Origin: a virus
Lineage: Duplodnaviria > Heunggongvirae > Uroviricota > Caudoviricetes
Virus record (IMG/VR): IMGVR_UViG_2657245015_000004
Reading direction: 5' to 3' (one strand)
Length of the DNA: 11,233 nucleotides
In this document: piece by piece, positions 1-11,233 of the stretch
Position numbering within the stretch: the stretch's first letter is position 1
How the letters are laid out: every line of letters starts with the position of its first letter
Notes under the pieces: model-generated
What the model was told of the DNA's origin: nothing
The model's database searches: none
What the model saw: the letters and a program-made list of their open reading frames with translations, nothing else
Made by a program: the position numbers and the translations under genes

Positions 1-1071
<1,071 letters not shown>

Positions 1072-1078
1072 ATCGTCC

Positions 1079-1474
1079 TCACATTTCATAGGTAATGACA
1101 TAAGTCAGATCGGCAGAACTCCACAGGCCCGCATCATCGTCGCGCCGGTAGTCATAGCCGCTGGCCACCATACTGGTGATCAAATCTGACAGTGCAGGGA
1201 TATCGCTCATCACCGGATAAATCCGGGACTCCATCCACGCATCCAGCTCTGAATCCGGCACCTGAGCAGGCAGGAAAACTTCGATATGCAGCTCCGCCTG
1301 CCAGGTATCGCTATCCAGCTCTTCGCCCGTGTATTCAGCGCCGGTGAGATAAACGGCAACTGCCGGAAAATCCGCCTCATCAAAAACAGCGGGGCGACCA
1401 TCAAAAAACGTCGCTCCGGTGTCATGCTTCTCCAGTGCATCCAGTACGGCTGCACGGAGTTCAGTATGTTTCAT
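1079..1474 (-). CDS. U: Tail terminator protein gpU (131 aa)
   Basis: 131-aa [21 protein letters not shown]... matches lambda gpU. Its start overlaps the Z stop by 4 nt (ATGA). Confidence 0.9.
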
Positions 1475-2049
1475 CGCTTTATTACCATCCTCAGTTGATG
1501 CTGCAGCGCATAGCCCAGCTCTTTCGGAAGACGCTCACGCCGTATCCGCTCAATATTCTGTTTAAACGCCGTGGTCAGCGGCACCGCCATCGGGATTTTC
1601 ACCACATCAATGGGGTAACGGTTTTTCCCGGCCACACGCTGCATGACATGCCAGCGGCCATTTTTCAGTTGCTGAATAAACGCGCCGGGAATACGACGGT
1701 TTCCCACCACAAGCACGCTGCCGCCACCTTTCAGGGCTGAACGCTGCCCCTTTTTACGACGCCTGCGTCGGGACAGGACAACCCGCGCGTTACCCAGCCT
1801 GATTACGGGCAAATCCCCCCGGTTAATTTTGATTCTGGCCTGCGGATTTTTGACCGTGGCCCTTTTCAGCCTGGCCCTTTCCTTTACCAGTTTCCGGCGT
1901 ACCTTTGTCTCACGGGCAACCTGTGACGCCGACTGCGATATCGCGGATGAAGCAACGCGGTTAATGGCCATTGCGGAGGCACCGGGCACCGCCGTTTTGC
2001 TGATACGGCTGAGGTTTTCAACGGCCTGCTCAAGACCCTGTATGGCCAT
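1471..2049 (-). CDS. Z: Tail completion protein gpZ (192 aa)
   Basis: 192-aa ORF MAIQGLEQAVENLSRISK... matches lambda gpZ. An AAGGGGGA ribosome-binding site lies upstream of the ATG. Confidence 0.9.
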   Translation of the reverse strand: MAIQGLEQAVENLSRISKTAVPGASAMAINRVASSAISQSASQVARETKVRRKLVKERARLKRATVKNPQARIKINRGDLPVIRLGNARVVLSRRRRRKKGQRSALKGGGSVLVVGNRRIPGAFIQQLKNGRWHVMQRVAGKNRYPIDVVKIPMAVPLTTAFKQNIERIRRERLPKELGYALQHQLRMVIKR

Positions 2050-2060
2050 ACATCCCCCTT

Positions 2061-2414
2061 TCAGCGGCGACGGTTAACGGCAGGCGGTACGCCCCGTCCA
2101 AGCCAGAGATGACAACTTCCGCCATCATCTGGCGAAACCCGATCTACCCAGAAATTTTCCTCACCGATGGTCAGCGTGTCTCCACGCCGCAGCTGCCGCA
2201 CCTCATCAGTCCGGACAAACAGGGACGGGCTGGAGCCTTCAACGCGCACGCCCTGTCCGGCATAGCTGATATTTTCAGGGTCATCAAAAACACCACGTAT
2301 CACCGCACCTGACTGCTCACCGGATGTCATGGTGGCTGACGTTCCCATGTACCCGCGTATCGTTTCATCGGCGCGGGCAATGGCAGCATCGAACAGGTTA
2401 TCGAAATCAGCCAC
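2061..2414 (-). CDS. FII: Head-tail connector protein gpFII (117 aa), GTG start
   Basis: 117-aa ORF MADFDNLFDAAIARADE... matches lambda gpFII. Start codon is GTG (window cac at 2412-2414) with a GGAGG site upstream. Confidence 0.9.
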   Translation of the reverse strand: MADFDNLFDAAIARADETIRGYMGTSATMTSGEQSGAVIRGVFDDPENISYAGQGVRVEGSSPSLFVRTDEVRQLRRGDTLTIGEENFWVDRVSPDDGGSCHLWLGRGVPPAVNRRR

Positions 2415-2425
2415 AGCGCCTCCCG

Positions 2426-2824
2426 TTATTGCATTCTGGCCAGGCCGCGCTCTGTCATTTCGGCTGCCACACCGGCAGAGACACGAAACGCCGTTCCCGG
2501 CAGCACAAATGCCACAGGTTCATCCCGCGTGACGTGAAGTGCATCAGTATGCAGCTTCACCAGTGCCACGACCGTGACCAGTTCAGACGTATCCAGAATC
2601 ACGGTATCCGGCTGCGCTGATCCCACCTCATTTTCATGTCCGGTCAGCACATTTTCCCGGCTGAGAGGGGTGTCCTGACCGGCAGTTTCATCCGTGTCAT
2701 CAAGCTCCTCTTCCAGCTCTGCCACACGGAGCGCCAGTTCTTCTTTCGTCCCCGTCAGGCTGACATCACGGTTCAGTTGTTCACCCAGCGAGCGGAGACG
2801 GGCAATCAGTTCATCTTTCGTCAT
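2426..2824 (-). CDS. FI: DNA-packaging / head assembly protein gpFI (132 aa)
   Basis: Internal Met of the 145-aa track ORF gives MTKDELIARLRSLGEQLNRD...GLARMQ, matching lambda gpFI. A GGAGGAG site sits 5 nt upstream of the ATG at 2824-2822. Confidence 0.9.
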   Translation of the reverse strand: MTKDELIARLRSLGEQLNRDVSLTGTKEELALRVAELEEELDDTDETAGQDTPLSRENVLTGHENEVGSAQPDTVILDTSELVTVVALVKLHTDALHVTRDEPVAFVLPGTAFRVSAGVAAEMTERGLARMQ

Positions 2825-2845
2825 GGACTCCTCCACAGAGAAACA

Positions 2846-2863
2846 ATGGCCCCGAAGGGCCAT
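2846..2863 (-). other. Stable RNA hairpin in the E-FI intergenic region: 7-bp stem AUGGCCC/GGGCCAU with a UUCG tetraloop (minus-strand transcript)
   Basis: Plus strand atggccccgaagggccat is a perfect palindrome with a 4-nt centre. It lies 2 nt downstream of the E stop (2866-2868) and 21 nt upstream of the FI ribosome-binding site. No U-tract follows. Confidence 0.5.
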
Positions 2864-2865
2864 GA

Positions 2866-3891
2866 TTACGCCAGTTGTACGGACACGAACTCATCAGGGT
2901 CAGCCAGCAGCATCAGCGGTGCTGACTGAATCATGGTGAACTCACGCGCCGGATCGCCGGTGGTCACCCAGTTTTTCGGGTAACGGGCAGAGGCGTTAAT
3001 GCCTTCGCGCTGTGCGTCCGCATCCTGAATGCAGCCATAGGTGCGCAGACCGCGTGCATGAGTGTTACCCAGCACCATCGTGTTGTCCGGCAGGAAGTTC
3101 TTTTTGACGCCGTTTTCCACGTACTGTCCGGAATACACGACGATGGCCACATCGCCATACATTCCCTTATAAGACACCGCTTTGCCCAGGTCTTATACCG
3201 CTGTCTCCAGTTCGGAATGAGAGCCGCGACGGGTATCCAGCTTCTCCCTGACGGCTTTGAAGGAACGGAACAGCGCCCAGCCTTTCGGATCGAACACGAT
3301 GATATTCACCACACCGCTGGCATTCAGCGCGTAGGCTTCGATATCGTCGGTCGGGTCATACGTGGACTTGTCACGCTTGCTCCACTCCGTGCCGCCGGAC
3401 TGCGTGATGTTATTCTCCTCACTGCGGCCCATATCCACCTCAACCGGATCGAAGGCTTCACCGGTCATGGTGTATTTGCCCTTAAGCACGGCAGAAACTG
3501 CCTGCATCTCTTCGACCTGAGCAATGGCCAGCTCTTCGTCACGCATGTTCTGCATGATGATGCGACGGCGGCGGTAAGCCGGGTCCGCCAGATTCTGCGG
3601 ATCTTCATCCGGCAGGCGACGCAGGGTCATCTGCGGATTCACTTCATGCTTCGGCTTGACATATCCCGGCGTAAATTCAGAGGTGGAGCCGCCACGGGAA
3701 CGGATAACCTCACCGGAAACAATCGGCGAAACGTACAGCGCCATGTTTACCAGTCCCGGAATTTGTGAGAGATAGACTTTCTCCGTGGTGAAGGGATAGC
3801 TCTCACGGAAAAAGAGACGCAGAAACAGCGGATCAAACTTAAATTTCTGCTCATTTGCCGCCAGCAGTTGGGCGGTTGTGTACATCGACAT
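2866..3891 (-). pseudogene. E: Major capsid protein gene E (341 codons) interrupted by an in-frame TAA at codon 233 (window 3193-3195)
   Basis: Track ORFs 3193..3918 (…GSHSELETAV, then stop) and 2866..3177 (VSYKGMYGD… to …VSVQLA) are in the same frame (3193-2866 = 327). Between them the minus strand reads GTA TAA GAC CTG GGC AAA GCG, i.e. V-stop-D-L-G-K-A. Lambda gpE has Lys at this position as I recall it. Total span is exactly 341 codons plus stop. Confidence 0.85.
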
Positions 3892-3903
3892 AAAAAAATC
3901 CCG

Positions 3904-3929
3904 TAAAAAAAGCCGCACAGGCGGCCTTT
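3904..3929 (-). terminator. Terminator-like hairpin (GC stem GCCGC-CUGU-GCGGC followed by U7) between D and E on the late-transcript strand; probable attenuator or RNA-stability element
   Basis: Plus strand taaaaaaagccgcacaggcggccttta. On the minus strand the stem is followed by UUUUUUU (3910-3904), then a second U7 run (3898-3892) immediately before the E ATG. Confidence 0.4.
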
Positions 3930-3946
3930 AGTGATGAAGGGTAAAG

Positions 3947-4279
3947 TTAAACGATGCTGATTGCCGTTCCGGCAAACGCGGTCCGTTTTTTCGTCTCGTC
4001 GCTGGCAGCCTCCGGCCAGAGCACATCCTCATAACGGAACGTGCCGGACTTGTAGAACGTCAGCGTGGTGCTGGTCTGGTCAGCAGCAACCGCAAGAATG
4101 CCAACGGCAGCACCGTCGGTGGTGCCATCCCACGCAACCAGCTTACGGCTGGAGGTGTCCAGCATCAGCGGGGTCATTGCAGGCGCTTTCGCACTCAATC
4201 CGCCGGGCGCGGTTGCGGTATGAGCCGGGTCACTGTTGCCCAGCGGCTGGTAATGGGTAAAGGTTTCTTTGCTCGTCAT
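3947..4279 (-). CDS. D: Capsid decoration protein gpD (110 aa)
   Basis: Translation [12 protein letters not shown]...AGTAISIV matches lambda gpD. The track ORF begins two codons upstream (MFM...); the lambda-equivalent ATG is at 4279-4277. Confidence 0.9.
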
Positions 4280-4288
4280 AAACATCCC

Positions 4289-4684
4289 TTACACTGGTGT
4301 GTTCAGCAAATCGTTAACGGCATCAGATGCCGGGTTACCTGCAGCCAGCGGTGCCGGTGCCCCCTGCATCAGACGATCCAGCGCAGTGTCACTGCGCGCC
4401 TGTGCACTCTGTGGTGCTGCGGCCAGAATGCGGCGGGCCGTTTCCACGGTCATACCGGGGGTTTCTGCCAGCACGCGTGCCTGTTCTTCGCGTCCGTGAG
4501 CCTCCTCACAGTTGAGGATCCCCATAATGCGGCTGTTTTCTGCCGCAACCGCTGCGGTGATCTGCGCGTTCACGTCCGGCTGCGCCGCGCTGGCGTTTTC
4601 GCCCTCCGTCGCTGGCACCACGTCAGTAACGTCAGCCTGCGAAGCAGTGGCTGAAACAGTTGTTGATTGAGTCTCTTTGGTCAT
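4289..4684 (-). CDS. Nu3: Scaffolding protein gpNu3 (131 aa), nested in frame within the 3' third of C
   Basis: Internal ATG at 4684-4682, in frame with C, preceded by a strong AGGAGGG site. Translation MTKETQSTTVSATASQ...LLNTPV is 131 aa, as for lambda Nu3. Confidence 0.8.
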   Translation of the reverse strand: MTKETQSTTVSATASQADVTDVVPATEGENASAAQPDVNAQITAAVAAENSRIMGILNCEEAHGREEQARVLAETPGMTVETARRILAAAPQSAQARSDTALDRLMQGAPAPLAAGNPASDAVNDLLNTPV

Positions 4685-5588
4685 TCGCCCTCCTGAGAGA
4701 CGGGATTTACGTGCATCCAGTGCATCACGCATGACGGTGATCGCATCGGTGCTGTTAACAAGTTCATCAGCCAGTCCGGCATCAATGGCCTCCTGACCGC
4801 TGTACACTGCAGCCTCGGTATCCAGCACAGCCTGCACGGACAGGCCGGTATATGCCGACACCTTCTGCGCAAACATCTGGCGGGTTGCGTCCATCCGGGA
4901 CTGCAGTGTCTCCCGGACGTCATCCGGAAGATGGCTGTAGGGGTTGCCATCCACCTTATGGCTGCCGCTGTAAATCAGCGTGATTTCCACACCCTGTTTC
5001 TCCAGCGCAGCACCGTAATTACTGTGAGCCATCATGACGCCGATGGAGCCTGTCCGGGCGGTCTGCGTGACCAGACGCCGGGAGGCGGCACTGGCAAGCA
5101 ACTGACCTGCACTGCAGTTCATGTCGTTGGCAAGCGCCCATACCGGTTTTATGTCACGCACACGGGCGATGATGTCAGCGCAGTCAAATGCCCCCGCCAC
5201 CATCCCGCCGGGCGTGTCCATATCGAGCAGAATGCCGTCCACCATCGGATCGCTGGCAGCCTGTTGCAGACGGGCGATAATGCCGTTGTAACCGGTCATC
5301 CCCGAGTACGGCTGCAGCGCCCGCGTCCGGCTGACCAGCGTGCCGGACACCGGCAGCACGGCGATGCCGTTCATGACCTGATAACTGCGGGTCTGTCGTG
5401 GTCCGTCATCATCACCGGATAATGCCAGCGTCGCGAGTGCCTCCTGGGCAGTCAGGCTGTCGCCGGACACCGCATCCGTCAGGCGGCTGATCCCAAGCTG
5501 GCCTGCAAGCGCACAAAAGAAAACCCGCGCATAGGCGGGTTCAAGCATCAGCGGCTCATTAAAGGCCATGCTGGCAATATGCGGGAGA

Positions 5589-5608
<20 letters not shown>
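4289..5608 (-). CDS. C: Capsid assembly protease / scaffold gpC (439 aa), GTG start
   Basis: Translation from (V)TAELRNLPHIASMAFNEPL... to ...DAVNDLLNTPV matches lambda gpC. GTG at 5608-5606 is preceded by a GGAGGAG site and overlaps the 3' end of B by 20 nt. The 484-aa track ORF is an upstream alternative-start extension. Confidence 0.85.
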
Positions 5609-9289
<3,681 letters not shown>

Positions 9290-9315
<26 letters not shown>

Positions 9316-9835
9316 TCAGCAACCCCGGTATCAGTTCATCCAGCGCGGCTGCTTTGTTCATGGCTTTGATGATATCCCGTTTCAGGAAATCAACATGTCG
9401 GTTTTCCAGTTCCGGAAAACGCCGCTGCACCGACAGGGGGATCCCGTCGAGAATACTGGCAATTTCACCTGCGATCCGCGACAGCACGAAAGAACAGAAT
9501 GCGGTTTCCACCACTTCAGCGGAGTCTCTGGCATTTTTCAGCTCCTGTGCGTCGGCCTGCGCACGCGTAAGTCGATGGCGTTCGTACTCAATAGTCCCTG
9601 GCTGGAGATCTGTCTCGCTGGCCTGTCGCAGTTCTTCAACCTCCCGGCGCAGCTTTTCGTTCTCAATTTTAGCATCCCTTTCGGCATACCATTTTATGAC
9701 GGCGGCAGAGTCATAAAGCACCTCATTACCCTTCCCACCGCCTCGCAGAACGGGCATTCCCTGCTCCTGCCAGTTCTGAATGGTACGGATACTCGCGCCG
9801 AAAATGTCAGCCAGCTGCTTTTTGTTGACTTCCAT
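9290..9835 (-). CDS. Nu1: Terminase small subunit gpNu1 (181 aa)
   Basis: 181-aa ORF MEVNKKQLADIFGASIRTIQNWQEQGMPVLRGGGKGNEVLYDSAAVIKWYAERD... matches lambda gpNu1, including the N-terminal winged helix-turn-helix DNA-binding segment. It lies immediately downstream of cosB. Confidence 0.93.
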
Positions 9836-9854
9836 TGTTCATTCCACGGACAAA

Positions 9855-9975
9855 AACAGAGAAAGGAAACGACAGAAGCCAAAAAGCCCGTTTTCAGCAC
9901 CTGTCGTTTCCTTTCTTTTTAGAGGGTGTTTTAAATAAAAACATTAAGTTACGACGAAGAAGAACGGAAACACCT
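9855..9975 (-). promoter_or_regulatory. cosB: terminase (gpNu1) binding region with R1 (about 9860-9875), R2 (about 9901-9916, inverted), R3 (about 9958-9973) and the AT-rich presumed IHF-binding segment between R3 and R2
   Basis: Three copies of the CGTTTCC-containing R element in the lambda arrangement: plus strand agaaaggaaacgacag, ctgtcgtttcctttct and gaagaacggaaacacc. They sit between cosN and the Nu1 start. Assignment is by recognition of the lambda left-end sequence. Confidence 0.7.
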
Positions 9976-10012
9976 TAAACCGGAAAATTTTCATAAATAG
10001 CGAAAACCCGCG

Positions 10013-10024
10013 AGGTCGCCGCCC
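10013..10024. other. cosN: the 12-nt cohesive-end sequence (plus strand aggtcgccgccc, reverse complement GGGCGGCGACCT), present here in the joined/uncut state
   Basis: Exact 12-mer, flanked on one side by left-end sequence (cgcgggttttcgc in reverse complement) and on the other by right-end sequence (cgtaacctgtcggatc, reverse complement of ...GATCCGACAGGTTACG). Confidence 0.85.
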
Positions 10025-10029
10025 CGTAA

Positions 10030-10056
10030 CCTGTCGGATCGCCGGAAAGGACCCGC
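10030..10056. other. cosQ region (approximate): right-end sequence just upstream of cosN, needed for packaging termination in lambda
   Basis: Segment ctgtcggatcgccggaaaggacccg corresponds to the lambda right-end sequence where cosQ maps. Exact boundaries cannot be fixed from sequence alone. Confidence 0.4.
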
Positions 10057-10060
10057 AAAA

Positions 10061-10075
10061 TGATAATAATTATCA
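10061..10075. promoter_or_regulatory. Perfect 7-1-7 palindrome TGATAAT-A-ATTATCA, matching the core of the Fur-box consensus
   Basis: Read directly from the sequence (tgataataattatca). The Fur-box core is usually written TGATAATnATTATCA. Function here is unknown and it may be a coincidental AT-rich palindrome. Confidence 0.3.
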
Positions 10076-10223
10076 TCTACATGTCACAACGTGCATCTAC
10101 GCCATCAAACCACGTCAAATAATCAATTATGACGCAGGTATCGTATTAATTGATCCGCATCAACTTAACGTAAAAACAACTTCAGACAATACAAATCAGC
10201 GACACTGAATACGGGGCAACCTC

Positions 10224-10418
10224 ATGTCAACGAAGAACAGAACCCGCAGAACAACAACCCGCAACATCCGCTTTCCTAACCAAATGATTGAACAAATTAA
10301 CATCGCTCTTGATCAAAAAGGGTCCGGGAATTTCTCAGCCTGGGTCATTGAAGCCTGCCGTCGGAGGCTAACGTCAGAAAAGAGAGCATATACATCAATT
10401 AAAAGTGATGAAGAATGA
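10224..10418 (+). CDS. Small basic protein (64 aa) with a ribbon-helix-helix-like (Arc/MetJ/CopG-type) signature; putative DNA-binding regulator
   Basis: ORF MSTKNRTRRTTTRNIRFPNQMIEQINIALDQKGSGNFSAWVIEACRRRLTSEKRAYTSIKSDEE. It has a beta-strand-like NIRFP, a helix, a G-x-N/S turn and a second helix (SAWVIEACRRRL). Weak GGGG ribosome-binding site 7 nt upstream. It is antisense to late transcription, as bor is in lambda. Confidence 0.55.
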   Translation: MSTKNRTRRTTTRNIRFPNQMIEQINIALDQKGSGNFSAWVIEACRRRLTSEKRAYTSIKSDEE

Positions 10419-10518
10419 ACATCCCGCGTTCTTCCCTCCGAACAGGACGATATTGTAAATTCACTTAATTACGAGGGCATTGCAGTAATTGAGTTGCAGT
10501 TTTACCACTTTCCTGACA

Positions 10519-10546
10519 GTGACAGACTGCGTGTTGGCTCTGTCAC
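10519..10546. other. Inverted repeat gtgacaga ... tctgtcac (8-bp arms, 12-nt spacer) between the convergent 64-aa and 68-aa ORFs
   Basis: Read directly from the sequence. No adjacent T-tract on either strand, so it is not a classic intrinsic terminator. It could be a protein-binding site or a weak bidirectional pause structure. Confidence 0.3.
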
Positions 10547-10582
10547 AGGTTAAGTAGTTTGAATGATTAGCAGTTATGGTGA

Positions 10583-10789
10583 TCAGTCAACCACCAGGGA
10601 ATAATCCTTCATATTATTATCGTGCTTCACCAACGCTGCCTCAATTGCCCTGAATGCTTCCAGAGACACCTTATGTTCTATACATGCAATTACAACATCA
10701 GGGTAACTCATAGAAATGGTGCTATTAAGCATATTTTTTACACGAATCAGATCCACGGAGGGATCATCAGCAGATTGTTCTTTATTCAT
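10583..10789 (-). CDS. Hypothetical 68-aa acidic protein, collinear with the small plus-strand right-end ORF of lambda
   Basis: [74 protein letters not shown] at 10789-10787 and TGA at 10585-10583. Same orientation as the late genes. No recognisable domain. Confidence 0.55.
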
Positions 10790-11032
10790 TTTGTCGCTCC
10801 ATGCGCTTGCTCTTCATCTAGCGGTTAAAATATTACTTCAAATCTTTCTGTATGAAGATTTGAGCACGTTGGCCTTACATACATCTGTCGGTTGTATTTC
10901 CCTCCAGAATGCCAGCAGGACCGCACTTTGTTACGCAACCAATACTATTAATTGAAAACATTCCTAATATTTGACATAAATCATCAACAAAACACAAAGA
11001 GGTCAGACCAGATTGAAACGATAAAAACGATA

Positions 11033-11233
11033 ATGCAAACTACGCGCCCTCGTATCACATGGAAGGTTTTACCAATGGCTCAGGTTGCCATTTTTAAAGA
11101 AATATTCGATCAAGTGCGAAAAGATTTAAACTGTGAATTGTTTTATTCTGAACTAAAACGTCACAATGTCTCACATTATATTTACTATCTAGCCACAGAT
11201 AATATTCACATTGTGTTAGAAAACGATAACACT
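11033..11233 (+). CDS. Hypothetical protein, 5' part only (runs off the window end); alternative start at ATG 11075, which has a better ribosome-binding site (GGAAGG)
   Basis: Open frame of 67 codons with no stop: [67 protein letters not shown]. The frame opens after TAA at 10949-10951. It is divergent from the 10583-10789 ORF and collinear with a lambda right-end ORF on the complementary strand. Confidence 0.55.

Follow-up and report, generated by a model that had tools for sequence, protein, structure and literature searches.

An ochre codon in the major capsid gene E and an IS3-family insertion in gene G of a lambda-like Escherichia coli prophage

The major capsid gene E of a lambda-like E. 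coli prophage is interrupted by a nonsense codon, TAA (ochre), at codon 233. The interruption was found in the window, i.e., the whole stretch of 11,233 nucleotides analyzed here, and recurs in related prophages. Very probably, an AAA-to-TAA mutation arose in E, was inherited vertically within the DEC15 / O111:H21 lineage as part of a defective prophage and was followed later by the insertion of an insertion sequence (IS) in gene G. The base change and the IS insertion were observed directly, as were the recurrence of the change and the clonal pattern among its carriers. The explanation is an ordinary one that implies no new biology, and its consequences are mostly bookkeeping. The lesion is already known in the sense that public records contain the truncated DEC15 proteins and a PGAP pseudogene noted as 'internal stop'. 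A lambdoid prophage has been caught here early in decay, with one nonsense base in strain 15A and, in the sublineage of the window, an IS in G in addition.

The nonsense codon in gene E and its surroundings

Translation of the minus-strand frame of E yielded 341 codons followed by the natural TAA terminator, with one internal stop at codon 233 (window 3195..3193). The codons around this stop read GAA CTG GAG ACA GCG GTA TAA GAC CTG GGC AAA GCG GTG TCT TAT AAG, and the corresponding peptide is ...SELETAV*DLGKAVSYK.... Position, codon number and peptide (ETAV*DLGKAVSYK) were as described in the first-pass annotation of this DNA. Its further statement that the product is a 232-aa fragment devoid of the C-terminal third was also confirmed, as this fragment covers only the first part of the Pfam profile of the family (Table 1).

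In comparison with phage lambda (J02459, E at 6135-7160), E of the window has the same length, aligns without gaps with 98.9% nucleotide identity and lies in the same D-E-FI order; E genes of many lambdoid phages matched likewise. The 11 nucleotide differences between the window and lambda comprise seven synonymous, three missense (K215R, N225H and Q278H) and one nonsense change. In the C-terminal remnant, only four differences were found, all at third codon positions, and one of these is missense (Q278H). At codon 233, lambda carries AAA (Lys). Thus, E is a lambda-type gene of 341 codons, collinear with lambda E, and lambda has a Lys codon at this position, as had been supposed. In a side observation, E of MW057783.1, a record of 48,361 bp named 'Campylobacter phage CJLB-4', matched as well as E of lambda itself. 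This record looks like lambda DNA (a control or a contaminant) under the name of a Campylobacter phage.

Both parts of the interrupted gene match the Phage_cap_E profile (PF03864), with E=1.5e-43 for the N-terminal fragment and E=2.8e-23 for the C-terminal remnant, so that E belongs to this family by profile match. When Lys was restored at position 233, the protein matched residues 1-341 of PDB 7vi9 with E=6e-228; 7vi9 and 7sj5 are among the solved structures of lambda gpE. The head genes around E follow the order Nu1-A-W-B-C-D-E-FI-FII. An uninterrupted frame for the whole capsid fold is lacking due to the internal TAA. The stop stands where close intact orthologues carry a sense codon, E is otherwise collinear with them, and the allele is heritable and present in independent assemblies (11 loci, 74 contigs). 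Judged by its sequence, E of the window is a pseudogene of the Phage_cap_E family and not a functional member. Gene callers reported it as two fragments (232 aa; 84 or 98 aa), which should become one pseudogene in the annotation.

The neighbouring genes Nu1, A, W, B, C, D, FI, FII, Z, U and V have exactly the lengths and the order known from lambda and are free of internal stops. The first-pass annotation had regarded all other genes from V to Nu1 as full-length, which holds.

Table 1. Features of the window (position 1 is its first nucleotide).
Feature	Position	Strand	Remarks
IS3-family element end: terminal inverted repeat TGTAGTGG... and first 59 codons of orfA	1..249	-	
Gene G (tail assembly chaperone), first 22 codons, cut by IS	250..315	-	IS sequence follows
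V, U, Z, FII, FI, intact	331..2824	-	Lambda lengths, no internal stops
Gene E, lambda-type major capsid protein	2866..3891	-	341 codons; predicted pseudogene via one internal stop
E C-terminal remnant, untranslated, 108 codons and stop	2866..3192	-	Pfam PF03864 positions 229-328 of 329
Ochre TAA, codon 233 of E	3193..3195	-	A-to-T transversion, first position of ancestral AAA (Lys)
E N-terminal fragment, 232 codons, would be translated	3196..3891	-	Pfam PF03864 positions 1-214 of 329
D, C (with Nu3), B, W, A, Nu1, intact	3947..9835	-	Lambda lengths, no internal stops

Recurrence of the TAA allele

Eleven other carrier loci were fetched, and in all of them E was identical to that of the window at every base, including the TAA and the C-terminal remnant. 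The exact 232-aa product was found on 74 contigs and in 111 index blocks; for E. coli DEC15A and DEC15B, NCBI lists it (EHY00958.1 and others) under the name 'putative capsid protein of prophage'. The carriers included the NCBI drafts GCA_000250495.2, GCA_000250555.2, GCA_000250575.2, GCA_006233015.1 and GCA_000753155.1, the Logan assembly SRR586270, several ENA gut-metagenome scaffolds, one complete RefSeq genome and one IMG/VR contig. Of 5,426 complete genomes of E. coli, one contained a 100% identical E, that of the O111:H21 strain 15A (NZ_CP077477.1). A 61-mer centred on the TAA matched exactly in the strain 15A genome alone, while 1,052 others had the same neighbourhood with a mismatch. 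A 36-mer of the TAA context was found in one IMG/VR contig, and neither among the GTDB species representatives nor in JGI metagenomes.

The single-base change is taken as real because it recurs across carriers; a chance statistic is not applicable to it. A sequencing or assembly error, with AAA as the true codon, might be suspected as the change falls inside a run of A's (GTAAAAGAC to GTATAAGAC). However, the TAA is a substitution, unlike the homopolymer-length error typical of artefacts, and the same base was found in 11 further loci that stem from differing technologies and pipelines (2012 NCBI drafts, RefSeq, Logan, ENA and IMG/VR), with the 232-aa product encoded on all 74 contigs mentioned above. 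The base-call error considered in the first-pass annotation is therefore scarcely credible.

That annotation had also considered a laboratory-type nonsense allele. Conditional-lethal nonsense mutants of E (Eam4 and Eam1100) are classic lambda tools, and such an allele could have entered a record by contamination or as an engineered construct. The laboratory mutants resemble the window in that they carry a nonsense codon in E, and a no-heads phenotype would be expected for both. However, the classic laboratory alleles are amber (TAG), whereas the allele of the window is ochre, lies in a non-lambda backbone and in a natural setting and is clonally inherited. The window is not otherwise laboratory lambda sequence: besides the differences within E, 155 mismatches and one gap were counted across 9,776 bases of alignment with J02459. 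Moreover, the prophage of strain 15A is located at icd, with the non-lambda flanking genes ybcW, ylcI and ybcV, and the TAA is carried by wild isolates from humans and by gut metagenomes. A laboratory origin is thus extremely improbable.

Strain 15A, the IS in gene G and the age of the mutation

Strain 15A is a wild human isolate, and its prophage is integrated beside icd (L016, NZ_CP077477.1 1026526-1029258). PGAP/RefSeq lists E of this prophage, KP524_RS05335, as a pseudogene and notes 'internal stop' for it. No other pseudogene is flagged in the prophage between int and the tail-fibre assembly gene. The remaining genes, from int and xis to those of the tail fibre, are annotated as intact, and the tail, lysis and cargo genes are among them. 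At megablast-level similarity, E matched one place in the strain 15A record, i.e., a second copy was not found. Nothing relevant to this prophage was found in the literature searched on DEC15A / O111:H21.

Window positions 250-11233 match strain 15A with a single mismatch, at 5734. There, codon 486 of gene B (minus strand) is TGT (Cys) in the window, compared with TAT (Tyr) in lambda and in most TAA carriers. This change, B Y486C, is shared only by the metagenome contigs L010 and L013 and marks a sublineage within the TAA carriers. In contrast to strain 15A, in which gene G is intact, the window carries an IS3-family insertion in G, and positions 1-249 are unlike strain 15A at the corresponding position. 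That the window is the strain 15A record itself was ruled out by this IS DNA and by the SNP at 5734; the reverse complement of the window does not occur in that record as an exact substring. The window is a separate assembly that shares the TAA with strain 15A.

The junction between the IS and G lies at window 249/250, and G is located next to V, immediately downstream. Over 249 nt, positions 1-249 were 100% identical to an IS3-family element of 1258 bp in strain 13E0767. This element shows a 3-bp duplication of its target (TCA), and its transposase is annotated with 'programmed frameshift'. The start of orfA matches Pfam HTH_Tnp_1 (PF01527) with E=6.9e-9. By this domain and by its identity to the annotated element, the sequence belongs to the IS3 family. 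Among the loci fetched, the IS/G junction was found in L013 alone, an ENA gut-metagenome contig; since both the window and L013 end inside the IS, only one end of the IS is seen. The junction pattern had no match in IMG/VR or in JGI metagenomes.

In strain 13E0767 itself, the same IS (249-nt end, 100%) is located inside G of another lambdoid prophage (L015 1492-2749, NZ_CP020107.1). This insertion is independent and lies at a different site, about 243 nt into G. The IS end was also found within about 1.3 kb of V in six further genomes, with the match covering G and T. It may be that this IS3-family element repeatedly targets the G-T region.

Across about 11 kb, 0-5 SNPs separated the carriers of the TAA from the window. 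The nearest prophage backbones that keep AAA were 99.82-99.91% identical to the window, and two of these (L018 and L022) showed 13-14 differences per 11 kb, the base at codon 233 being one of them. In all 11 sequences with intact E that were examined (lambda, LSU61 and nine further), codon 233 was AAA. In five intact loci (L002, L019 and L021-L023), E differed from that of the window by the base at codon 233 alone; L002 and L020 are the same LSU61 record. The Lys233 version of the protein with the same three missense changes was found on 33 contigs. In these comparisons, the TAA carriers form a tight clade and the intact relatives lie slightly further away, a pattern that indicates one mutation of evolutionarily young age and clonal inheritance. 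As one of three options, the first-pass annotation had proposed a 'single' and 'recent' lesion. Recent agrees with the 0-5 SNPs among carriers versus about 13 to intact relatives; single applies to strain 15A and not to the window, where G carries the IS.

Consequences for head assembly and fate of the prophage

The events were very probably as follows. First, a spontaneous AAA-to-TAA mutation (Lys233 to ochre) arose in gene E of a lambda-like prophage. Second, vertical inheritance carried the mutated prophage through one E. coli lineage, DEC15 / O111:H21 with its close relatives. Third, translation would end at residue 232, and nothing could make up for the third that the single-domain capsid protein then lacks. 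Upon induction, neither proheads nor DNA packaging would be expected, and lysis would occur without infectious particles, which would make the prophage defective (cryptic). Last, in the sublineage of the window, the later IS3-family insertion destroyed G too, with decay continuing.

The loss of head assembly is an inference from what is established for lambda, in which gpE is the only major capsid protein and nonsense mutants of E form no heads. That the missing third is indispensable agrees with general knowledge of single-domain capsid proteins of the HK97 fold and with the lambda E nonsense mutants. Lambda cannot assemble tails without G and GT, the frameshift product of G. On the best reading, the prophage in the sublineage of the window would be unable to assemble tails either.

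The stop could be bypassed by an ochre-suppressor tRNA of the host or by natural readthrough, yielding enough full-length gpE for viability. The annotation of all other genes of the strain 15A prophage as intact would fit such a bypass, but is equally expected of a young lesion. The only tRNAs of the prophage are tRNA-Ile(GAT) and tRNA-Thr(TGT), between Q and the holin gene (L001 9618-9773), and a suppressor tRNA was found neither in the prophage nor in the window. It is established that UAA is the most efficiently terminated stop codon in E. coli and that ochre suppressors are weak and costly. About 415 copies of gpE are required per head, for which trace readthrough is insufficient, and the later IS in G shows that the element was not kept functional in at least one sublineage. 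A bypass sufficient for viability is thus very unlikely, while low-level readthrough or marker rescue in strain 15A, where the rest of the prophage is intact, is formally conceivable. With regard to the tRNA genes, tRNA-Thr was annotated by PGAP and tRNA-Ile was not; ARAGORN finds tRNA-Ile as well.

The head-less state might also have been selected, either for the cargo (bor, lom, sieB and immunity) or for free lambda-type tails comparable to F-type tailocins. In favour of such selection, numerous isolates and metagenomes share the fixed allele, and strain 15A retains intact tail, lysis and cargo genes. However, with carriers as similar as described above, retention needs no selection, and the loss of G in the sublineage of the window abolishes tail assembly. 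Furthermore, free lambda tails are not known to have killing activity. We consider there to be only a slight chance that the head-less state was selected. It is just as doubtful that the capsid-null allele was kept by selection and not by drift, so that domestication of the prophage would have begun with Lys233-to-ochre as its first fixed step. If that were true, immunity, exclusion and serum-resistance cargo or free tails released by lysis, for example, would be retained without infectious virions.

The preferred explanation, i.e., a mutation in E followed by vertical inheritance and further decay, places this prophage beside known ones. DLP12, Rac and Qin are defective lambdoid prophages of E. 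coli K-12, and a pool of defective prophages was reportedly described for O157 Sakai by Asadulghani and colleagues in 2009. As in the present case, point mutations and IS elements affect their morphogenesis genes, and they are inherited vertically. The prophage described here differs from them by its much earlier stage of decay, since, apart from one base, the prophage of strain 15A looks like a complete phage genome. Among isolates and gut metagenomes, the TAA and the IS junction might be of use as lineage markers of E. coli related to DEC15 / O111:H21.

Some further changes were seen in individual loci. In the TAA carrier L006 (about 14408-20699), unrelated phage head genes (terminase, portal and a ClpP-type protease) are located downstream of T, and the TAA carrier L009 (13970-17326) shows an altered H region with extra ORFs. 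These loci suggest that the tail region was rearranged or recombined once the nonsense mutation had arisen, or that the sequences were misassembled. In L007 (GCA_000250575.2, AIHS01000015.1), W, the lysozyme gene, L and K were called shorter, with a 1-nt gap relative to the window. These short genes could reflect further decay or homopolymer errors of an older draft. In L023 (1-4719), E is intact, and a Mu-like element (Mu transposase, transposition ATPase and repressor) replaces Nu1-A-W-B upstream of C, which is another, independent route by which this type of prophage has been disabled.
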